Shown here piece by piece: positions 23,438 to 58,368 of a stretch of 64,000 nt of DNA; positions within the stretch are counted from its first letter, which is position 1; the number at the start of each line of letters is the position of its first letter. A model generated the notes under the pieces. That model was not told where the DNA came from. It searched no databases and was given only the letters and a program-made list of their open reading frames with translations. This DNA is from a virus, in the IMG/VR virus record IMGVR_UViG_3300021171_000007, positions 1-64,000 of that record; one strand, given 5' to 3'. Position numbers and translations under genes: made by a program.

Positions 23438-23470
23438 GTTTAGTAAGAAAAGCAAGTTTTGGAGGGCTCA

Positions 23471-23998
23471 ATGCAAGATCTATTTGCCACACAAACACAA
23501 AACGATTTCAAGTGGGTAGTGGCAGTCTTTGCAAATACTGGCGCAACAGAAGCCATTCGAAAAGCTAACGATGTACCATTGAAAACATTTTATCCAATAC
23601 GATTTAATCAAAAAGGACTTCCAGTCCCTTTGTGGCGCCACTACTTATTCATTGAATTTCGCGACACGTTAACAGCTCAAGTATGTCGGAGCACTAAAAA
23701 ATTCATTAAAGTAATTACTATGCGTGATGAAGAAGGAATAGAATATCCAGTAATGGTACGTAAAAACGCTATTAATGAACATCTAGGATTATTACTATCT
23801 GGTAGATTTAATAGTAGATCAACAGTTAGACGTTATTACGGAAAAGGATCAATAGTTAGAGTATTGGAAGGTAATTTTATTGATAAGAAAGTACGATTGG
23901 AAACAGATGTACCTCCAAGTATGCCTGGTAATAAGAAAGTACAAATTGACATAGGTGGATTCAAAGCAAGCATCGAGATTTGGAAGTTAGCACTATGA
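23471..23998 (+). CDS. NusG/RfaH-family transcription antiterminator paralog
   Basis: NGN-like KWVV...TFYP...PLWRHYLFIEF; KOW-like GSIVRVLEGNF; ATG at 23471 after GGAGG. Confidence 0.8.
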   Translation: MQDLFATQTQNDFKWVVAVFANTGATEAIRKANDVPLKTFYPIRFNQKGLPVPLWRHYLFIEFRDTLTAQVCRSTKKFIKVITMRDEEGIEYPVMVRKNAINEHLGLLLSGRFNSRSTVRRYYGKGSIVRVLEGNFIDKKVRLETDVPPSMPGNKKVQIDIGGFKASIEIWKLAL

Positions 23999-25894: not shown

Positions 25895-28247
25895 ATGAGG
25901 TGCCAAAACTGCCACGGTAACGGACACGCTTGGAATATGTTAACCCAAGAATATCTCCTTTGTATGGAATGTCATGGCAGCGGCATAACATCATGTTGCG
26001 AAGGGAACCCAAATATGACTGAAGATAAAAATCATCCATTCGTATCAACACCAAATAATGGACCATGCTCCAGCTGCGGAAAATTACGTAGTGATTCAAT
26101 TCATCGTAGAATGTTTGAATGTGATGCAGAAGTTTATACGTGCCCATATTGTATGAAAGCTGTTGTGGTATATGTAGAATTAGATGGTAGTGGAGTCATT
26201 TCACACGAGAGCTATGATTTAATTGCTAATTGGGTATATCATTCCAAATGCTGGGATGAACAAATGCGTAAATTTCCGCCAGGAGAGCCAAATGCAAAAT
26301 GATCCACTTAAAGAAATCCAAGAGTTCAATAGAAAGCGTAATGAGCTATTTCGCAACCCAACATTGGAGGCGGCAACTGCACACCTAAAAGAAATGGGTA
26401 TTACTGGATTTGAAAGAGAAGATGTGCCATTAGCAACAGTTCATAAAGCACGCCTACAATGGCTAGAAGCTACAAATCAAATGATTACAGAGTCCATCGC
26501 ATGGCTAAAAGAACATGGCTACGAGACAACTTTTAAAGGAGCGCCACCACTCACGCCAGAGCAACGTGACTCAGACCGTATTGAGATCGGAAAGAAACCA
26601 TTAGGAGAAGAATGATGTTGGAAAAAGAATTAAAAGAGTCAGATGAAGTGCTCTTCAAAATTGTAGCTGATAATCTCGAAGCTTCCATAGAAAATGAATA
26701 TAATATGGATAGCTACACAGATGAAGAACTTGCTGGCGATCTATTGGCATATGCAGAAGATTGCTCAGAATATAGTATTGAATATCTAACAGCAGCAGTT
26801 CACAAATGGAGAAAGAAAAATGGGCGAAGCCAAAATAAAACGCCTTAAAATAAAGGCCAGAAATATTCTAAATACGGAGTTCCAGACTACTAGACTCAGT
26901 AGTGGCTGTGACTGCTTAAACTGCGGCATAGAAATTGATGCTGCTACCAGTGTTGGCCACAAAAACCTGCCACAAGAAGGTGCTATTGCCATCTGCATGA
27001 TATGCTCTCATATTATGGCATACGACGAGAAAATTCATCTGCGAGAGATGACAGACGAAGAATGTCTGACAATTGCTGGTGATCCAGAAATTCTCTTTCT
27101 TATCAACGGCCTAGGCAGCGCCAAGAAACACTGGGAAGAAATACATGGTAAAGACACGTGGGGCGCCAAAGCGCGGGAAAGGCTCGCTAGGCTCAAAGCT
27201 CAACAAAACGAAGAGAAAGCTAAGGAAGAATGAATATGAGTGCGCTGCCTGTCATGAGGTCTATGCCAAAGGAGTGTCTGATGAAGAGGCTTTGGCGGAA
27301 GCTGCGACGCTTTTTCCTACTGTTCCAATTGAGGATACTTCAATAGTCTGCGATGACTGCTTTCAGAAAATGATGGCAGACGTCAAAGCCCGCCCATGGG
27401 CATACCCACCCCTACCAGGAGATGATGATGGTAAGTGATTTGTTTGACGAACACGGAAAACGAAAGATGCGCCCAGGTAGTGGAGTGATACCGAAGCCAT
27501 TTGACAAAGTAGAACTTGAAATTGTGCGTGCTGATATGGCTGAATTAATAGCCAGAGAAAAAGAAAATGGCGATTGGGAAAAATGGCTTGAATCGCAGCG
27601 CCCAATTTCGCAACTGCGGTCGCTTGACCGCGATTTACTTACAATCTCAGTTACACTGACAGTTGATGGCCACGTCATTCCTACGCCTGTTGGTCTTCCA
27701 GACGCAATCATGGAAGAGATAAATGACAGATACCGCAACCGTTCAACGCACCGTCTGGAGCGCCAAGAAATGCCCAGCCGCATCGTAGCAATGGAAGCTG
27801 ATCGAGAAAGATTGGAGAGAATTCGATTTTACACAGGTCAAATTACTGCTGAGATCTTCGCTCATTATGTAGGCCGCCCACCACAGAATGATGATCTTAT
27901 GCGCGCCAATTGTAATCTAGCCGGCCAATTAGGACATTCCGCCTGCGGTTGGTGCGGAAGCTGCCAACGGCCCCGATTCATATGCAACCACCACGTGATA
28001 TCACCCAATGGACCAATGAGATGAAAACCAAAAAATGGAAGAAGCATATGCTTCAACTCATGAGGATCGCCCTGATTCCAGGTCCACCAGGCCCTAGAGG
28101 CGCCACTGGGCCCCAAGGTCCACAAGGTGTTCCAGGTCAGCAAGGCCCCATCGATTCATCAAACTATGACCTTGCTGAGCAGATCGCTTGGTTGAAGAAT
28201 GAACTAGCACAGTTGAAAATTGAAATTGACAGCTCAAGGAGGATTAG

Positions 28248-28468
28248 TGATGAAAATCAAAAACTATCAACCTCAAAACGAGGAAGAAGCCGTAGGATGG
28301 TTGATGGAAGAGTGCTGCGAGGTGGTAATATCAATCGGTAGGTGCATGAGGTTTGGAATTGAAACTGTCCACGAGGGCCGTACTAATCGCCAGATCCTAC
28401 TCGATGAGCTTGATGATTTATCTAAAGCCTGGGCTGAATCACAACTATGGCTAAGGAAAGTCAAATGA
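28248..28468 (+). CDS. MazG-like nucleotide pyrophosphohydrolase
   Basis: LMEECCEVV..RFG..ILLDELDDL acidic helical motif. Confidence 0.5.
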
Positions 28469-29085
28469 TTAGATGCGCCCAGTGCAAGAAAGAGTTTGCT
28501 CCAAAATTTCCACAACATAGATTTTGTTCAAAAGACTGTGGCACAAGATTCCATAGATACGCACGAATGATGAAACGCGATCGTAAATGGATTTTGATTA
28601 ATGGGCCTAGATCTGTTCAATCTGATTCTACGTGAACGGATTGTAACTCATTATGATTCCACAGTGGGGGGTTGTAGAAATCAAGATGAGTGAAAATTTG
28701 ATGCTAGTCCGGTGACGGTCACCACCAGTGGGTCGCGTGAAACAGGTAAAACAGAAGATCGACCCCGACCTTCGGCTGGCCAGAAAATCGACAGAGAAGG
28801 GCAAGAGATAGGGATAGGGTCTAGCGTTTTAGGCTATGTGCATAGCGGACGCATGTCCGAGGCCGCCTGTCAGCCTCCTAATGCGATTTAAACGCATATC
28901 GCGGACTAGGGCATAACGGACGCGAGAAACGAAACATTCGCGAACATTACAAAATGTTAATGTGTTCGCAATGTTTTGTAATGTTGCAAACGTCGTTTAC
29001 GTGTATTGTTCCCTTTGCACCGCGCTTTTGCGGTGCGGGCGGACGCTACGTGCGCCGCTCTTGTCTAGCAAAAAGGACTAAACAA

Positions 29086-29583
29086 ATGTCGAACGAAAAG
29101 CCCGCAAAGGTTGCGGACGTTCTCGCGCAAGTTAGCGCGGATAATGCGGAAGTGCGCGCTAGCGTGCTTGCGCTAGTGCAGGCTATGCCGCAAGCGATTG
29201 CGGACGCGGTTAAGCAGGCGTTGCCTGTCCCGACCGTGCGCGCGCCGCGAACCGCTCGCGTTGCGGTGCAGATGTCTCCTGCGGACGCGGACGCCGCAAT
29301 GTGCGGTTTTAACAAGAAAGGTCCGCGCCGCGATTTCTTTCTTGCTGTGCGCGAATTGCCGAGCGGCACATATTCGCTTGCGGAAACGTTTCCGGGCGTT
29401 TCGCTTGCGGAGGCGGGCGTTGTTTATCGTCGCCTTAGCGGACAACGCACGGGCGGACGCGTTACGGAAAGCTTTTTCGAGCGGTTAGGCTTCGAAATCG
29501 CAATCGTTAACGAAGTGCGCGGGAAGGCCGAAATCGGCATTACGCGTTACACGGACGCGAACAAGACGGGCGAAACCGCCTAA
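29086..29583 (+). CDS. Hypothetical 165-aa protein in the TGR/YCA-free island
   Basis: AAGGA SD then ATG 29086 (MSNEKPAKV...); own terminator. Confidence 0.7.
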   Translation: MSNEKPAKVADVLAQVSADNAEVRASVLALVQAMPQAIADAVKQALPVPTVRAPRTARVAVQMSPADADAAMCGFNKKGPRRDFFLAVRELPSGTYSLAETFPGVSLAEAGVVYRRLSGQRTGGRVTESFFERLGFEIAIVNEVRGKAEIGITRYTDANKTGETA

Positions 29584-29592
29584 CGCGCAATC

Positions 29593-29623
29593 GAGCGGAC
29601 GCGACAAGCGTCCGCTCTTTTCT
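29593..29623 (+). terminator. Intrinsic terminator
   Basis: GAGCGGACGC-gacaa-GCGTCCGCTC-TTTTCTT. Confidence 0.8.
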
Positions 29624-29746
29624 TGCCCTCTAACTTCAGGACCAACAAAACCATGTTTATCATCATCGCACATCGTGGCCTCAACTGGCGCTGCTTCCGT
29701 GGCCCCAAGCGGACGTACTTCCTCTGGATCCACGAAGGAAATTGAA

Positions 29747-29880: not shown

Positions 29881-29904
29881 AATGGGGCGCAAGCCCCATT
29901 TTTT
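29881..29904 (+). terminator. Intrinsic terminator
   Basis: AATGGGGC-gcaa-GCCCCATT-TTTT. Confidence 0.75.
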
Positions 29905-30233
29905 CATGTCCAGTTCGTTCATCCCATGAATTGAATCAATCTCATGAATTGAGTTTGGTGATGATGATATCATGACATTCATCCCATGAATTGAATATAG
30001 ATCATAATTCATTCATCATGGTCATTTTCATTCATTGGCTGGTAACTTCATGAGTGCCATTGGCTGATGGATGCGCACCAACGTGGATTGATGATGGTGA
30101 CTTCATAGCAATCATTGATTGATGGTTGCGCCCAGATCATGGGATGATACCAATCAACTACCATTACCACTCACCATTGACTGAATCATTACTGATGACT
30201 TACCATTGATTCATGGAGCGCCCAGGGACTGTT

Positions 30234-30478
30234 ACCAGTCCTGTTAGTCCTGTTATTTTTCATATAAAATAGGACAAAGAAAGTGCAACGATTACAAGGA
30301 CTTACGGCGACCAGTCCTGTTAGTCCTGTTTGTCCTATTGGTATTTCCATATGCGAGGCGTCGTTTTGCTACCTCTTCCCGACCACTGACCGGACAGCCT
30401 CCATGGCCGGCCTAACCCCTTGTAATCGTTAAGGAATTTCTGTCCTCCTTGTGGTTTTCAGAAAACAGGACAGGACAG
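30234..30478. repeat. GTCCTGT iteron-like repeats; putative replication origin
   Basis: ACCAGTCCTGTTAGTCCTGTT at 30234 and 30310; inverted copies AATAGGACA (30268) and ACAGGACAGGACAG (~30464); just downstream of the helicase gene. Confidence 0.55.
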
Positions 30479-30514
30479 AACCACAGATCATTAATGTAGA
30501 TTGTTACCATTGAC

Positions 30515-31999
30515 TCAAGCATCTGGCTTATACAAACTGAAATCAAAATCAGTATTGCCGCGTAAAACTGACCATTGACCATCTTCTGTTGACCATTGAA
30601 CCTTACCACCCAACTTACTTTCCAATGATCTTCTGACATCGGGACATAATGGAACTTCATATCCATTGCGTCTATTATCACGACTGTCTCTAATCTTGAT
30701 ATTCTCAACTACCATATCAGGTATCAAATCTGCTAATTGGCGACCAAATTTTCTTTCTGATAACTGGTGGCGCTTCCCAGCTGGAGAATGATTATAGTCA
30801 TTCAATAGCAGAGCTTTGATTACTTGCACTTTGCCATCCATCAATTCACCATAAGGCATTTCTTTGGAGTCTACAATACTATATAGCCATTCTTGGACTC
30901 CATTCATACTCTGTTGTTTCTGGAATATTAATTCTTCAGTAACAGGAGCTATTCTGAGATCAATATCATATTTATGATTGAGGAAATAATGCATGAGCGC
31001 GGCATTGCCGCCATTTTTAAACCAATTGTCAAGTTGGGCAAAGTATTTAGTATCACGTCTCTTATCTTCTGATGCATGAAGTGCGAATATGCGCCTAGCT
31101 TTGAATCCAGCGCTGACTAGCCATTCTGGATTACCAGTTATAAATAAATGAAGATGATTTGGAACTTCGTAAACTGGCACATATTTATCATTAATAGGTA
31201 ATGTGGGACCAGATATGATATCTTTTAATAATGATTCATCTTTCTTACTACCAGCCCAAACTGCCTCTTCCAAATGGAGTAATATACAGTTCTTCAATTG
31301 CCCGTTATGATCGCCAAATATGTATGCTGGATTTGATGTTTTAAATGTATATGGGCGCATCAATTCAGATAATTTCTCCACAAAGAATGATTTGCCTACA
31401 CCCTCATCTCCACGTATTACTACGGCTATGGCTGGTTTCAAATGAGGCTCTTGGAACATTTGGGAAATGAGTGCAATTAGATAATTGAAATTGTCTACAT
31501 TTCCACAACAAATGATATTATTCATTAAATCTAAGAATGGTATGACATCGCCCTCTTTTGATTCAATTCTATATCCTTTCCATAAATTATATTTATCATT
31601 TCTATTACCTAAATATGATGGATCGAAATCAAATCCGTATTTATAATGGCGACGTTCTGAACTGGCGAACCATACATCCGTAATTGGCACATATTTTGGA
31701 TCACCACCTTCGGTTGGCATTATCATAATACGTCTATCTGAATAACCAGCAACCAAATCTTTCTTATCCATTATTTCTAATGTGCCATCTGGATTCTCTC
31801 TGACTACTTTGAATCGCCCATTTAAATATATTGTAAAATGATCTTCATTTAATTCTAATATGGCATCTTTCTTTGGATCGCCAGTTCTGGTATATTCTCG
31901 TCTGGGCGCACCATGTTGATTTTGTTGATATCTTGGATCCTCAGTAAGTTTCTTAATACGTTCCAAATCTGGATATAGGTCGTCATCATCGTCAGCCAT
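30515..31999 (-). CDS. Primase-associated superfamily-3-type helicase (DUF5906-like)
   Basis: Walker A GDEGVGKS, LHLEEA, LFITGN, ARRIF; YNLWKGY. Confidence 0.8.
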   Translation of the reverse strand: MADDDDDLYPDLERIKKLTEDPRYQQNQHGAPRREYTRTGDPKKDAILELNEDHFTIYLNGRFKVVRENPDGTLEIMDKKDLVAGYSDRRIMIMPTEGGDPKYVPITDVWFASSERRHYKYGFDFDPSYLGNRNDKYNLWKGYRIESKEGDVIPFLDLMNNIICCGNVDNFNYLIALISQMFQEPHLKPAIAVVIRGDEGVGKSFFVEKLSELMRPYTFKTSNPAYIFGDHNGQLKNCILLHLEEAVWAGSKKDESLLKDIISGPTLPINDKYVPVYEVPNHLHLFITGNPEWLVSAGFKARRIFALHASEDKRRDTKYFAQLDNWFKNGGNAALMHYFLNHKYDIDLRIAPVTEELIFQKQQSMNGVQEWLYSIVDSKEMPYGELMDGKVQVIKALLLNDYNHSPAGKRHQLSERKFGRQLADLIPDMVVENIKIRDSRDNRRNGYEVPLCPDVRRSLESKLGGKVQWSTEDGQWSVLRGNTDFDFSLYKPDA

Positions 32000-33587: not shown

Positions 33588-33616
33588 TTGCATCATCAAT
33601 AGAACTGTGCTATAAT
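33588..33616 (+). promoter_or_regulatory. Sigma70-type promoter
   Basis: TTGCAT-17-TATAAT with an extended TGc. Confidence 0.7.
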
Positions 33617-34977: not shown

Positions 34978-35006
34978 TTGCTTTCCTTCCGCGAACGTGC
35001 TACGGT
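34978..35006 (+). promoter_or_regulatory. Sigma70-type promoter driving the early small-gene region
   Basis: TTGCTT-17-TACGGT with an extended TGc. Confidence 0.55.
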
Positions 35007-40468: not shown

Positions 40469-41088
40469 AGCTAGGGATGGAAAATGAAAAACATAAAAGA
40501 AATCACGTCTATGAAAGAGTTTGCTATCATTAGACGTGCTTTGGAATTATATGTTGCTACTCTAAGTGAAGAGTATGACAACAAACCAATGCGTGCCAAA
40601 CTTATAAAACTTGAAGAGGCGCAAGCCTGTTTGAGAGATTTCAACAAACTAGGAGAACAAAATGGCAAATCTAAAGAGTTACCCACCACTAAAACCTTGC
40701 CATTGCGGCAGCGGTATGGAAAGAGAAGCGAGATATGATGCTCGCGGTATTTTTCTCACGTATGTATGTGAGAAATGTGAGAAAGAAAAGTTATCACATT
40801 ATCGACCAGACGTTCTTACTGATTCAAATTATTGGCACGACGAGCCAATTGACGATTAAGACGCGGTAAACAGCGTTAATGCCCAACACACGATTGGCAG
40901 CGTAATGGGCAGACTTGCCATCTAAACCAACCCCCGTAAGATGGCTTTTTATTAATTTAGCGAATCACCTGGTTTTGCTTCAACTGCCCCCCAGTTGCTA
41001 AAAGCCAGGTGTAGACTTGCCGCCCACAGTCCCACAACTGTGGGCGGTCTTTTAGGCAATTTAGCCAACAACCAGGATTTAAAATGTC

Positions 41089-49212: not shown

Positions 49213-50457
49213 CTAACTGGAGCCAAATAGATCCTTATCGGCGTGAGAGATGACAGGTCTGTTTCTCTCCGCCTCCTCCATCATTCTGTTATAATCTTCT
49301 TCCCACATGACTTCGCCTATCCACGGCGGCTTAAATCCATTCTCCTTTGCTGCCCATATAAGACCTCCAAGACTTTTAGTCCCATTTCTAGGAAATTCTG
49401 GGCGATGCGATTTCCATTGCCGCATAAAGTAACCTTGGCCGCGCCCCATTACACCGTATCTGGCGCCGCCGCTTACAGCTTCAAGAAACAATTCTGTTGC
49501 CTCATCAATTGTTAGTTGATTTGCTTCATTTTCGTCATGTATCGCTCCTATTAATGGTAGCATTACATGAAGTGTGTACCATTCGTTTGTGTCTGCCAAT
49601 CCTTCGTCTCGAATGAACTCTATACATGCCAACGCTTTCTTGTATGCTGTCCATTTGGAATCTTTGCGAGGTATAAATGGTTGTCTCTGCGACTGTGCGC
49701 GAATTGGCGTTATATTTGGCACTTTTAATCTCAATTCATCAATGCTATGTTTATAACAATAATTTCTGGCTATGTGTGCTAACGCTACTTGCTGGCCTTT
49801 GGTTTGCTTCTCTAATTTTGGATAATTTACCGTTCCTGGAAGACGCATCACTCGGTCTACGTTGGACATATTATCAACTTTGACTGGAAGATGTGCTACT
49901 TTGGAACGTAAGAACGTCTCAAAATCATGCCCAAGATTAGTAACGAATGAGCGCATTTTAATTGATCCTAAATTAGCAGCTTTTTTCTGCTCAGTATCTG
50001 CTGGATTAAATAATTTGACACCTTCTCTCCTATTGAGAAGATAGATAAGGTGAAAGCCGCCGCCAGTATTAATAACTAGCGATGGTTTTAATTCAAGTTC
50101 CTTATCTATAAAATCCAAAACCTTTTGTTGATCTCTTTCAAAAGAAGTAAAATCTATATCAAATGCTAAGGCTCTGATACCTATGATATCATCTATATTA
50201 TTTTTGCCACCCTTGCCTTGTCTATCAAAAATCTTACATGGTATGTTAACACTGTAATAAACATTGGACTTACGAGCTTGGCGCTTCTTAATGTCTGCAA
50301 TCAATAATTCTCTTTGTTCCTTTTCAAAGGTGCGCCCAGCTTCCCAGACTGGGCCGTTATCAGGTCCGCCAAATGGCGCTTCAGAAGCTATTGTATGGCG
50401 CCCATTAGGCTCTAGGATGTCAAGAAATTGAAGAGCTTGCTCGATATTGAGTTCCAT
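49213..50457 (-). CDS. RepB-like / AEP-type DNA primase
   Basis: NVYYSVN, LAFDID, VINTGGGFHLIY, RVMRLPGTVN; PriCT-like C-terminus. Confidence 0.75.
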   Translation of the reverse strand: MELNIEQALQFLDILEPNGRHTIASEAPFGGPDNGPVWEAGRTFEKEQRELLIADIKKRQARKSNVYYSVNIPCKIFDRQGKGGKNNIDDIIGIRALAFDIDFTSFERDQQKVLDFIDKELELKPSLVINTGGGFHLIYLLNRREGVKLFNPADTEQKKAANLGSIKMRSFVTNLGHDFETFLRSKVAHLPVKVDNMSNVDRVMRLPGTVNYPKLEKQTKGQQVALAHIARNYCYKHSIDELRLKVPNITPIRAQSQRQPFIPRKDSKWTAYKKALACIEFIRDEGLADTNEWYTLHVMLPLIGAIHDENEANQLTIDEATELFLEAVSGGARYGVMGRGQGYFMRQWKSHRPEFPRNGTKSLGGLIWAAKENGFKPPWIGEVMWEEDYNRMMEEAERNRPVISHADKDLFGSS

Positions 50458-50721: not shown

Positions 50722-50750
50722 AGAGTAGCATAAACCGAAAAAGAAAGCAA
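50722..50750 (-). promoter_or_regulatory. Sigma70-type promoter for the primase operon
   Basis: TTGCTT-17-TACTCT with an extended TGc. Confidence 0.6.
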
Positions 50751-51819: not shown

Positions 51820-51848
51820 TTGCTTTCCTCGCGCAACTATGCTATGTT
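51820..51848 (+). promoter_or_regulatory. Sigma70-type promoter for the replication block
   Basis: TTGCTT-17-TATGTT with an extended TGc. Confidence 0.6.
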
Positions 51849-53927: not shown

Positions 53928-54374
53928 ATGAGCCTTATTGAACACGATGTAGGTGAACACGCAACCCGAGCAATTGAAGAGAGACTTCTTGGTGTAGAAA
54001 GACCAAGATTATTGAGAACACTTTCGACCAAACCAGAACCGGTGGTTGAGGAGCCACCGGCACCGGAACCTGAATCTATGCCAACACCTGTTAAAATAGA
54101 CCATACATTAATTCCGATCGACGCTCTTGAAGAAGTGTCACGAGCACTTATGTATGGTAAAGAGAAACATGGCGCTTGGGGATGGATAGAACATCCAAAG
54201 AGCTATACTGAGCTTCTCGCGAAAGCGCAGCGCCACATTTTTGAGTTTCAACGCGGTGTGACAATTGATCCAGCAACTCAATTGTCACATATAGCATGTG
54301 CGATCTGTGATCTCATGTTTCTGCAATCCAATATTATAAAGGGTCGTGGAACAGATGACAGGTTCAAAGATTAA
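53928..54374 (+). CDS. dATP/dGTP diphosphohydrolase-domain protein (DUF5664-like)
   Basis: LIPIDALEEVSRALMYGKEKHGAWGW..AQRHI..DPATQLSHIACAICDLMFL. Confidence 0.75.
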   Translation: MSLIEHDVGEHATRAIEERLLGVERPRLLRTLSTKPEPVVEEPPAPEPESMPTPVKIDHTLIPIDALEEVSRALMYGKEKHGAWGWIEHPKSYTELLAKAQRHIFEFQRGVTIDPATQLSHIACAICDLMFLQSNIIKGRGTDDRFKD

Positions 54375-55558: not shown

Positions 55559-55644
55559 GAAAATGGCAGGACACGATTGGTTTGAGGCGTTAACGTATTG
55601 TACGATTATCGTTTGGTTTTTATACGATGTATGGAAGCGGCGTA

Positions 55645-56526
55645 ATGACTGATATCCATATTATTGGAGCAGGTATGTCTGGCTTGTTGGCAGCTAATAT
55701 GCTGCGGCGCCACAGAGTAACTGTGTTTGAAAAACAAGAGCAACTTCCAAATAACCATCATGCAGTCTTACGTTTTAGAACTCCAGAAATAGGCAATATT
55801 TTGGGTATTCCTTTTAAAAAAGTTAATATGATTAAAACTTACGAGCCATATATGAATGTGGTAGCAGATAGTTTGTCATATTCCAGGAAATGCACTGGTA
55901 AATATCTATCAGATAGATCCATTATTACTGGAACTATTCAATCTGAGCGTTACATTGCGCCTCAAAATCTAGTAGAACAAATGGCAGAAAATGTTAATGT
56001 CTGCTATGGCACAGGATTTGATCCATTAAAAAACAAAGCAAACATACCAGTTAAAGCTATTTCTACGTTGCCAATGCCTGTGCTAATGGCATTATTAGAA
56101 TACGAACATGATATTAATTTTGATAGTATCCCAGGTTGGGTCTTCACAGGCAGAATATTGGATTGCGATGCCTATGTCTCAATTTTATACCCAGGTCCAC
56201 AAGTATATAGTCGCGCCACTATTACGGGAGATCAAATTATTGTGGAATTCCCCAACCTTGGAGAAATTCCTGATATTGTTGATCTTGCTAATGTTTATAA
56301 CTCCCTTGGTTTATATGATTGTGTGGTACTTGATGCCGAATTTAAGAGACAGCCATATTTCAAAATAACAGAGATAGATGAAGCAGAACGCAAGGCGTTT
56401 ATGCGTTGGGCAACTGTCACATATGGTATCTATTCTCTGGGGCGCTACGCAACCTGGAGACCAAAACTGCTACTTGACGACCTAATCCACGATGTCCGCA
56501 AAATAGAAGGATGGATCTGCAAATGA
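55645..56526 (+). CDS. FAD-dependent oxidoreductase (Rossmann fold; UGM/PPO-like)
   Basis: IHIIGAGMSGLLAA..VFEK; C-terminal SLGRYATWR. Confidence 0.75.
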   Translation: MTDIHIIGAGMSGLLAANMLRRHRVTVFEKQEQLPNNHHAVLRFRTPEIGNILGIPFKKVNMIKTYEPYMNVVADSLSYSRKCTGKYLSDRSIITGTIQSERYIAPQNLVEQMAENVNVCYGTGFDPLKNKANIPVKAISTLPMPVLMALLEYEHDINFDSIPGWVFTGRILDCDAYVSILYPGPQVYSRATITGDQIIVEFPNLGEIPDIVDLANVYNSLGLYDCVVLDAEFKRQPYFKITEIDEAERKAFMRWATVTYGIYSLGRYATWRPKLLLDDLIHDVRKIEGWICK

Positions 56527-57014: not shown

Positions 57015-57749
57015 ATGAAAGTAACGCTTATTGACGGAACAGGATTTGGTTCTCCAAATCCAAGTCGCTATGCTGCAAATATGATTGCATACACTAGATC
57101 AACAAGACTCAATATGTCTCCAGGATTACTTGCTGAAATCCAAGCAAAAGAAGATTTTGAAGTTCTTAAAGAAGTGCAATTGGCAGCAGGTACAATTCCA
57201 TCTAGCTGGGAGTTCGTTCAATTCACATTTGTTATAGAGAAAGTGACACGAGCATTTACCCACCAATTGGTGCGCACCAGACACGCCTCATATGCTCAAC
57301 AAGCTATGCGTATTGTTGAGATGACAGATTTTGAATACGCTAGAGGTCCGTCTGTTGGAGAACAAGGATTATACGATGATACTATGGCAATGATTGCCAA
57401 AAATTATAAGATATTAATTGATTCAGGTGCAACGACTGAGGATGCGAGAGGCATATTGCCAACGAATATTCTCACCAATATTTGTATGCATATCAACATG
57501 CGTAACTTTGTTAATTTGACAAGGAAACGCGTCAGTAGACGTGTGCAAAATGAGTACAGAAATGTACTTGATGCAGCAATAATTGAAGTCGAGAAAACAT
57601 ATCCATGGTTCTATCTTTTCTATAAAAATGATGCATTTAAGGCCAGAAAAGATCTGCAAGATATGATCTATGAAAATAAGCACCTGCTACCTGAAGAAAA
57701 GGTAGACATGGTTAAGAAATTGGATATTATAGGAGGGCAAGAGTTATGA
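57015..57749 (+). CDS. thyX: ThyX-like flavin-dependent thymidylate synthase homolog (atypical motif)
   Basis: SWEFVQFTF..VTRAFTHQLVRTR..SYAQQAMR; EDARGILPTN; NMRNF; QNEYR. Confidence 0.8.
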   Translation: MKVTLIDGTGFGSPNPSRYAANMIAYTRSTRLNMSPGLLAEIQAKEDFEVLKEVQLAAGTIPSSWEFVQFTFVIEKVTRAFTHQLVRTRHASYAQQAMRIVEMTDFEYARGPSVGEQGLYDDTMAMIAKNYKILIDSGATTEDARGILPTNILTNICMHINMRNFVNLTRKRVSRRVQNEYRNVLDAAIIEVEKTYPWFYLFYKNDAFKARKDLQDMIYENKHLLPEEKVDMVKKLDIIGGQEL

Positions 57750-57921: not shown

Positions 57922-58368
57922 ATGATAGTTGTTGTTGATCTCGATCATACTGTGTCTGACGCGTTTTGGCGCGACAGTATGATAGGTGTCAATCCTTGGG
58001 ATGAATATTACGAAAACGCTAAGTACGATAAGCCATTCAAGAACGTAGCTAATTTAATCAATTCTCTTTCTGCTATGAACTACGAGATTATAGCATTTAC
58101 TGGAAGACCAGAAAAATTTAGAACTCTAACAGTCAGTTGGTTAGTTCGTAATAGAATTGACATAGATACTATCTTGATGCGCCCAGACGAGGATTATACC
58201 AAAAATAGCGAGTTGAAACTTAGATTAATCAAAGAACATTTTAAGGATAGATTTTATCAAATACATTTTATTATTGACGATAATGAGGAATCAGTATTAG
58301 AATTTTACAAATTGGGGATACCTACACTTCAAATAAGAAACGTAAGACCAAAGGATCTCTTCGCGTGA
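57922..58368 (+). CDS. HAD-family phosphatase (PNKP phosphatase-like)
   Basis: VVDLDHT, FTGRPE, LMRP, IIDD. Confidence 0.8.
   Translation: MIVVVDLDHTVSDAFWRDSMIGVNPWDEYYENAKYDKPFKNVANLINSLSAMNYEIIAFTGRPEKFRTLTVSWLVRNRIDIDTILMRPDEDYTKNSELKLRLIKEHFKDRFYQIHFIIDDNEESVLEFYKLGIPTLQIRNVRPKDLFA

Follow-up and report, generated by a model that had tools for sequence, protein, structure and literature searches.

The 64,000-nucleotide stretch of DNA from an uncultured soil phage analyzed here (positions 1 to 64,000 of the IMG/VR record IMGVR_UViG_3300021171_000007; hereafter the window) contains a 766-bp interval, from the TCA at 28870 to the TCA at 29636, in which the trinucleotides TGA, TGG, TCA and CCA do not occur. 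These four words are taken together below as TGR/YCA, and the interval is called the island. The window has a GC content of 41% and is part of a 79.6-kb virus record rated complete in IMG/VR (the window plus G000, positions 64001-79611; locus L014). It holds 4,907 TGR/YCA sites, or 0.077 per position, and the longest gaps between sites after that of 766 bp measure 107, 90, 87 and 80 bp. A second gap, the upstream shoulder, adjoins the island, so that a single site is found across 28780-29636. CCA/TGG and TCA/TGA are the only strand-symmetric trinucleotides absent from the island, and CG dinucleotides occupy 14.6% of its positions vs 3.5% in the window. No second stretch of this kind, in CpG content or in site depletion, exists in the 79.6-kb record. 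The original prediction had described this interval by reading the letters; its coordinates proved exact, and the gap is far beyond chance.

The island is one transcription unit consisting of upstream repeats, a 5' hairpin, a ribosome-binding site, a 165-amino-acid (aa) open reading frame (ORF) whose product is referred to as P0001, and a terminator (Table 1). The conserved palindrome near its upstream end is possibly a protein-binding site. In the inverted repeat that follows, every TG is succeeded by T or C despite the AT-richness. One arm of this repeat is conserved in all the relatives described below, and a TCA about 6 nt upstream of it, present in all relatives and absent in the window, marks the upstream edge of their islands. 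A consensus scan found no canonical sigma-70 site on the + strand of the island. Downstream, the boundary is set by a conserved TCAGGA, whose TCA follows the terminator's T-run by 9 nt. The transcript is more structured than its shuffles (z = -4.2), and Rfam gave no match in the window at gathering thresholds. Only contigs from two 2018 soil DNA runs contain the stretch; no RNA run is among the listed holders.

The missing sites are not accounted for by what the unit encodes. When the ORF is shuffled synonymously with its own codons, the null by which the prediction was to be judged, 15.3±2.7 sites appear (minimum 5 in 20,000); genome codon usage gives an expectation of 28.1 and uniform synonymous choice one of 24.3. 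For the whole island, its own dinucleotide Markov model predicts about 25 sites. The observed number is 0 in each case. The 218 nt of upstream non-coding DNA should hold 8.5 sites and have none, a value reached in 0 of 5,000 simulations, while in the 57 nt of downstream non-coding DNA the absence is not significant taken alone (P0 = 0.26). Amino-acid content, codon usage and composition are ruled out as the cause of the gap by these shuffle and Markov nulls. The absence is actively maintained, because 83 of the 374 possible synonymous single changes in the window ORF would create a site. The ORF does lack Trp and its codons are CG-rich, as had been noticed (GCG for 17 of the 27 Ala, CGC for 10 of the 14 Arg). 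Avoidance of restriction palindromes, discounted from the start, is likewise ruled out: AAGCTT, GTTAAC, TTCGAA and GCGC all occur in the island.

The repeated hexamer CGGACG was also correctly noted. It is found 10 times on the + strand of the island and once on the - strand, out of 15 and 3 copies in the whole genome. Enrichment on the sense strand is seen in three lineages, those of L004 and L007 included (7-9 copies vs 0-1 on the opposite strand), and not in the L002 lineage. The idea that CpG is abundant because CGR>TGR and YCG>YCA transitions are barred was considered and fails, the unconstrained context RCGY being abundant (37 of 104) and the doubly constrained YCGR the rarest.

Whether homologous loci share the depletion had been left as a check, and they do in three diverged lineages, in which the same unit lies between the same flanks with 63-70% nucleotide identity to the window over the island. 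The site-free gaps measure 623-625 bp in L004 and L012 and in L007-L011, and four TGR/YCA sites are present in about 856 bp in L002, L003, L005, L006 and L013. Lineages separated by synonymous divergence (dS) of 0.4-1.2 stay at 0-4 sites. The relatives' islands have a GC content of 58-60% and a CpG observed/expected ratio of 1.67-1.89. The counterpart of the upstream shoulder carries 2-3 sites per corresponding 70-175 bp. A compositional accident, in which a recently acquired GC-rich foreign gene happened to be without the four words, would fit the GC content of 56% vs 41% and a codon usage unlike that of the rest of the phage. It is hardly credible given that the island's own dinucleotides and the ORF's own codons predict many sites, that the AT-rich promoter part is equally site-free, that three lineages at this distance keep the depletion in syntenic position, and that P0001 has no cellular homologue in 185,579 species genomes.

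The pattern of substitution between P0001 lineages (ratio of nonsynonymous to synonymous rates, dN/dS, ~0.2-0.45 at the dS given above) marks the ORF as a real gene under purifying selection. The family comprises nine protein clusters from metagenomes with 60-74% identity, to which a profile search of 1.84 billion representatives added three distant members, P0010, P0011 and P0013. Trp is absent from all of them. P0001 is matched by no Pfam, PHROG or NCBIfam model, by nothing in 50,697 phage records and by no PDB sequence, and scores in the ESM Atlas are 0.76 or lower. Its AlphaFold model has a mean predicted local distance difference test (pLDDT) score of 71, with 85-91 over residues 70-120. 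The predicted layout is a long N-terminal helix, a disordered linker and a C-terminal helix/β-hairpin domain that is winged-helix-like. The best structural matches of the C-terminal domain are OmpR/PhoB effector domains; they are weak (Z 5.2-5.3, root-mean-square deviation 3.2-3.5 Å over 74 residues), a level within the range of common arrangements. Foldseek returned nothing significant (E-values no better than 0.05), and neither Pfam nor NCBIfam matched P0001 to Trans_reg_C, the OmpR/PhoB winged helix. In the model, the product resembles a coiled-coil plus winged-helix DNA binder.

Outside the island, the same four words are spread with unusual evenness. Sites follow one another at a mean spacing of 12.9 nt across the genome, and only 26 gaps are of 39 nt or more vs 296 expected under independent placement, a ratio of 0.09. 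Among 96 comparable motif sets, each made of a dinucleotide with one degenerate base added and taken together with its complement, the next lowest ratio is 0.56. Gap lengths between 3 and 15 nt are about equally frequent, and the histogram has run out by about 35 nt, with the 99th percentile at 34 nt vs 58. In 46.5 kb of confident coding sequence there are 8 gaps of at least 39 nt vs 119 (minimum 102) in synonymous shuffles. The squared coefficient of variation of gaps (CV²; 1 means random spacing) is 0.31 in coding DNA vs 0.62±0.03 after shuffling. Immediately behind a site, the chance per nucleotide of reaching another is 0.055; it then climbs to 0.2-0.3 past 24 nt, vs a flat 0.09 in shuffles. 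Even spacing is found in every gene module and is somewhat stronger in early and replication genes than in structural genes. Such active spacing would be pointless unless the word served the phage and was read on duplex DNA.

The regularity belongs to the four-word union. Single words are near random spacing, TGR or YCA of one strand alone is moderately regular (0.62-0.64 vs 0.81-0.84 in shuffles), and the union is the most regular. The control sets CAR/YTG, TGY/RCA, AGR/YCT and GAR/YTC behave as their shuffles do. A longer or narrower motif, defined by flanking bases or by A vs G at position 3, was tried and rejected, no subset being more regular than random thinning; no flanking base matters, and the address is exactly TGR. 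There is no helical (10-11 nt) or 24-nt phasing, and the site autocorrelation shows codon periodicity only. Because the regularity is a property of the union, either orientation satisfies the constraint and the signal is therefore read on the duplex. TGR/YCA is a duplex-level signal kept by the phage everywhere but in the island, and its strand-independence argues against explanations at the level of RNA, of single-stranded DNA (ssDNA) or of the primase.

Primases do recognize trinucleotides (GTC in T7, CTG in E. coli, GTG in pRN1), and TGR/YCA could be the recognition triplet of a phage primase, either an archaeo-eukaryotic primase (AEP)-type PrimPol or the D5-like primase-helicase, the island being a no-priming zone beside the origin. 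A 5'-YCA-3' template would give a purine-purine primer, and the neighbors of the island are an origin-like tract and the primase-helicase gene. Priming is strand-specific, though, and each strand alone is far less regular than the union; moreover, chance alone supplies enough three-base sites to prime Okazaki fragments, leaving a 35-bp ceiling unneeded. We give this explanation next to no weight. It is also very improbable that the unit is shaped by its mRNA having to resist an endoribonuclease with a three-base target, e.g., a MazF-type toxin. UGG- and ACA-specific MazFs exist, the gap spans the transcript, the RNA is unusually structured as noted, and the phage carries PNKP-like genes. But the word and its complement are both absent, sites are also missing from 140 nt or more of DNA ahead of any plausible start, and sense TGR and sense YCA are interchangeable genome-wide, which an RNA reader would distinguish.

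Among the phages compared, even spacing is seen only in the clade of this one. TGR is the lowest set in all loci of the related clade, with ratios of 0.12-0.44, and the relatives' coding DNA has 1-4 gaps of at least 30 nt vs 22-31 in shuffles. Nothing comparable is seen in phage lambda, nor does any motif stand out in about 70 loci from unrelated phages whose primase is related. Site counts exceed those of synonymous shuffles by about 5% in the genome and by 13-24% in the relatives. The promoter-like pattern TTGC-N15-17-TGCTA occurs 8 times vs 2.7 expected, mostly in intergenic long gaps. The idea that promoters sit in motif-free windows stands in part: the long gaps are mostly intergenic and some contain TTGCxx...TGCTAnnnT, but their number is near the expectation for unconstrained DNA, and one promoter-like site has a TCA.

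The densest TGR/YCA tract of the genome lies about 300 bp after the island, past a small ORF, and is conserved in relatives. It is iteron-like in composition, with three copies of TCATCCCATGA (two direct, one inverted), three of TTACCATTGAYTCA and a 37-nt repeat. Lying beside a D5-type primase-helicase gene, the tract looks from its repeats like an origin or regulatory region.

Table 1. Positions of the site-free unit and of other features of the genome
Feature	Position	Strand	Remarks
Upstream shoulder	28780-28870		90-bp TGR/YCA-free gap adjoining the island; ends at TCA 28870
CGGACG (often GCGGACGC)	28845-29602	mainly sense	in coding frames and non-coding parts alike
TGR/YCA-free CpG-rich island	28871-29635		0 sites; GC 56%; CpG observed/expected ~1.8
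Conserved palindrome ATGCGATTTAAACGCAT	28881-28897	+	upstream of promoter region; kept in L002 and L004
AT-rich inverted repeat AACATTACAAAA / TTTTGTAATGTT	28943-28985	+	operator- or promoter-like
Candidate promoter, TTGCAA then TATTGT	28984-29009	+	14-nt spacing, non-canonical; putative, start uncertain
5' leader hairpin GCACCGC-GCTTTT-GCGGTGC	29017-29036	+	stem conserved, loop different in L004
Ribosome-binding site AAGGA	29073-29077	+	8 nt upstream of ATG
165-aa ORF (P0001)	29086-29583	+	coding; purifying selection
Intrinsic terminator	29593-29627	+	10-bp stem GAGCGGACGC/GCGTCCGCTC, then T-run
Dense non-coding tract	29900-30230		more TGR/YCA than anywhere else in the genome: 20-22 sites per 100 nt vs 7.6
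GTCCTGTT/AACAGGAC repeats	30234-30480		between dense tract and primase-helicase gene
D5-like primase-helicase	30515-31999
Second primase, 414-aa ORF without Pfam match	49213-50457	-	DIDF and NTGGGFHLIYLL motifs typical of archaeo-eukaryotic primase-polymerases
Candidate phage promoters TTGC(W)(W)-N-TGCTAnnnT	33588-33612, 34978-35002, 40975-41000, 50726-50750, 51820-51844, G000 ~64640 and ~67000	- for 50726-50750	TGA-free -35 box, extended -10

Several other genes deserve mention. A 179-aa ORF starting MQDLFA (23459-23998) heads the rightward early cluster and has no Pfam match at E <= 0.001. Just upstream of the island, at 28220-28635, lie two short overlapping ORFs that each cover only part of a longer family. 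One, of 82 aa, is MazG-like (nucleoside triphosphate, NTP, pyrophosphohydrolase) and the other, of 62 aa, matches HNH endonucleases; they may be gene remnants or mini-domains. A nucleotide-metabolism cluster encodes the N-terminal domain of a MazZ-like dATP/dGTP diphosphohydrolase (53928-54374), a virus-specific flavin adenine dinucleotide (FAD) amine-oxidase-like protein (55627-56526), ThyX (57015-57749) and a HAD-PNKP phosphatase (57922-58368). These genes define no motif-specific system, and there being no PurZ, the phage probably does not have a Z-genome. The FAD amine-oxidase-like protein was considered as a hypermodification lyase and rejected: it has relatives in PB1-like Pseudomonas and other phages, and its similarity to MnmC is limited to the dinucleotide-binding motif. 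We know of no hypermodification in the phages that carry such relatives. Also rejected was a role of tRNAs, suppressors or an alternative genetic code; no tRNA genes are present and long ORFs are intact under table 11. A 240-aa protein with a C-terminal PEP-CTERM sorting motif (L014 5054-5776; G000 67054-67776) is a hint that the host has an exosortase system and is Gram-negative and from soil.

The original prediction had offered, as one of two readings, that the island enters the cell first and escapes a host system recognizing triplets of this kind, such as type I half-sites or CCA-directed Ssp phosphorothioation. This is not supported, because the triplets crowd the remaining 99% of the genome and sparing 1% of the DNA from a triplet-reading nuclease would not save the phage. 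In a broader form, the island would be first-entering DNA or an antidote gene surviving a host defense that cuts or modifies DNA at TGR/YCA, such as a frequent-cutting nickase, an ssDNA nuclease of the T4 endonuclease IV type, DarT-like ADP-ribosylation, or Ssp. T4 endonuclease IV has a preference for TCA. In favor of this form, the motif is absent on both strands, promoter included, and the phage has genes for a ligase and for end-repair enzymes of PNKP-like type. Short-motif enzymes exist, DarT2 with its four-base TNTC among them, but DarT1 has no consensus motif (PMC11543638). This form too is improbable. The rest of the genome holds the word regularly and in counts above shuffles, the opposite of evasion; a cut elsewhere would still kill the phage; and strand-agnostic regularity speaks against ssDNA-level enzymes. 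The Ssp and phosphorothioation literature searched deals with CCA only and contains nothing tying it to even spacing. An Sf6-type small terminase suggests, by family, headful packaging with permuted ends and no fixed leading end. At its ends the contig breaks off within structural and tail genes, and it has no recorded end repeats.

The early-entering, restriction-site-poor DNA of T7- and T5-like phages (the ocr region; first-step-transfer DNA) is comparable in that a short stretch, there with an early gene and here with a presumably early one, lacks a word that matters for survival. For type I restriction, it is the sites in the DNA injected early that determine whether a phage is sensitive (PMC12455610). 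What T7- and T5-like phages avoid are host restriction sites, 4-8 bp long or bipartite, and elsewhere their genomes are neutral or depleted too, whereas here the word is of 3 bp, the rest is evenly stocked, the exempt zone coincides with one transcription unit, and there is unlikely to be a fixed leading end. By analogy only, the island may be compared with vertebrate CpG islands, which are GC- and CpG-rich stretches of about 0.8 kb over a promoter, unmarked amid an otherwise marked genome. It differs in belonging to a phage genome, in that the missing words TGR/YCA are not the decay products of methyl-CpG, and in that CpG is enriched to 1.8x expectation and not merely preserved.

The other of the two original readings, a mark at TGR/YCA from which the island unit is kept free, be it a base modification or a bound protein, is the one we put forward, tentatively and with somewhat less than an even chance of its being right. 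TGR/YCA would be a three-base-pair address on double-stranded phage DNA, read in either orientation by some factor, most likely an enzyme placing a bulky base modification and otherwise a DNA-coating protein. Selection would hold at least one address per ~35 bp (13 bp on average) in all gene bodies, so that the whole genome is marked. The mark would presumably be protective, and it is assumed to be incompatible with unaided transcription by the host. One complete promoter-to-terminator unit kept free of addresses could then be read by host RNA polymerase from marked DNA. The unit would probably be the first gene expressed, and P0001 may be a DNA-binding early factor that enables or organizes use of the marked genome. 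The even spacing and the exemption of a single unit support such a mark strongly but indirectly.

Known hypermodification systems offer a partial precedent. The T-dioxygenases (5mYOX, NTG/NTC), 5-HMUDK/AADT, the 7-deazaguanine enzyme DpdA and Mom mark part of one base in a 2-3-nt context genome-wide, and the marks are protective (PMC13229309, PMC8989533). Among them, the post-replicative phage T-dioxygenases, with their preference for NTG or NTC, set a precedent for modification at the trinucleotide level (PMC13229309). With TGR/YCA as the target, the marked share would be about 13% if the base is T or A and about 18% if it is G or C. This predicted extent is below the 30-50% reported for thymidine hypermodifications and within the range of Mu Mom. 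In Mu, Mom modifies about 15% of A. None of the known enzyme families of these systems was detected in the phage, and neither even target spacing nor a mark-free gene was found in the literature searched on them.

Several observations weigh against a mark with one exempt unit. Six-frame searches with PF12851 (Tet_JBP), PF02195 (ParB_N), PF01555 (N6_N4_Mtase), PF00145 (DNA_methylase), PF01702 (TGT) and PF00709 (Adenylsucc_synt) gave no match at E <= 1, and Pfam, PHROG and NCBIfam scans of about 110 ORFs yielded no modification enzyme; a writer, if there is one, may belong to an unrecognized family or come from the host. All other genes, other early ones included, carry the address yet must be transcribed, and a mark that blocks RNA polymerase requires the added assumption that P0001 or another factor relieves the block. 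The strong CpG enrichment and the strand-specific enrichment of CGGACG are left unexplained. Finally, coverage is not absolute: most of the remaining long gaps are intergenic and non-coding DNA is unevenly covered. Long intergenic gaps are compatible with promoters that need to stay mark-free.

In the main rival explanation, P0001 would itself be the reader, an abundant protein that binds TGR/YCA and coats or organizes the DNA, its own unit being site-free to avoid self-repression or a roadblock. Nucleation would occur at the adjacent dense tract or origin, and host -35 boxes might be occluded, since TTGACA contains TGA. We consider this unlikely, at perhaps one chance in a few. The predicted winged-helix-like fold and a long N-terminal helix suited to oligomerization are in its favor, as are a unit whose 5' hairpin, ribosome-binding site, terminator and structured mRNA seem designed for strong expression, the conserved dense tract a short distance downstream and the candidate promoters, which use TTGCxx instead of TTGACA. 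A binding-only model needs no modification enzyme, and none was found. The P0001 family and even spacing are confined to the same clade, but this co-occurrence is inseparable from shared ancestry. The fold match is weak (Z ~5), no DNA-binding family model matches, the protein is just mildly basic, and the 10-11- or 24-nt phasing expected of a cooperative filament is absent. Furthermore, binding that hinders would harm all other phage genes, and harmless binding makes self-exemption needless. The parallel is p6 of the Bacillus phage phi29, which is small, is made early, and coats the entire phage DNA from nucleation points in particular regions. Unlike the putative reader, p6 recognizes bendability with 24-bp phasing and not a word, and TGR/YCA sites have no phasing. 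P0001 shares neither sequence nor fold similarity with p6, for which no self-exempt gene is known.

Whichever factor is responsible, the pattern implies one that reads duplex DNA with 3-bp specificity and acts every 13 bp, plus a gene that must escape it. That phage genomes avoid short words is well known, but the literature searched holds no case of a word evenly spaced genome-wide yet excluded from one gene unit. It is possible, though doubtful, that this clade of soil phages has a three-base-pair duplex code, with a writer or reader showing no detectable relation to known modification enzymes, no window of ~35 bp left unmarked, and one unmarked unit for the gene that launches or reads the system. 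The ~35-bp ceiling is close to the length of DNA covered by type I restriction complexes and at Cascade-type CRISPR targets, and may reflect it. The spacing statistic is cheap and applicable to all viral contigs, and co-occurring genes would point to the readers of such codes. The factor, once found, could reveal a new modification or coating system, a new counter-defense logic, and a frequent, orientation-free DNA mark usable as a tool. If true, coverage selection for a mark, together with a mark-free pioneer gene, would be a new principle of viral genome architecture.

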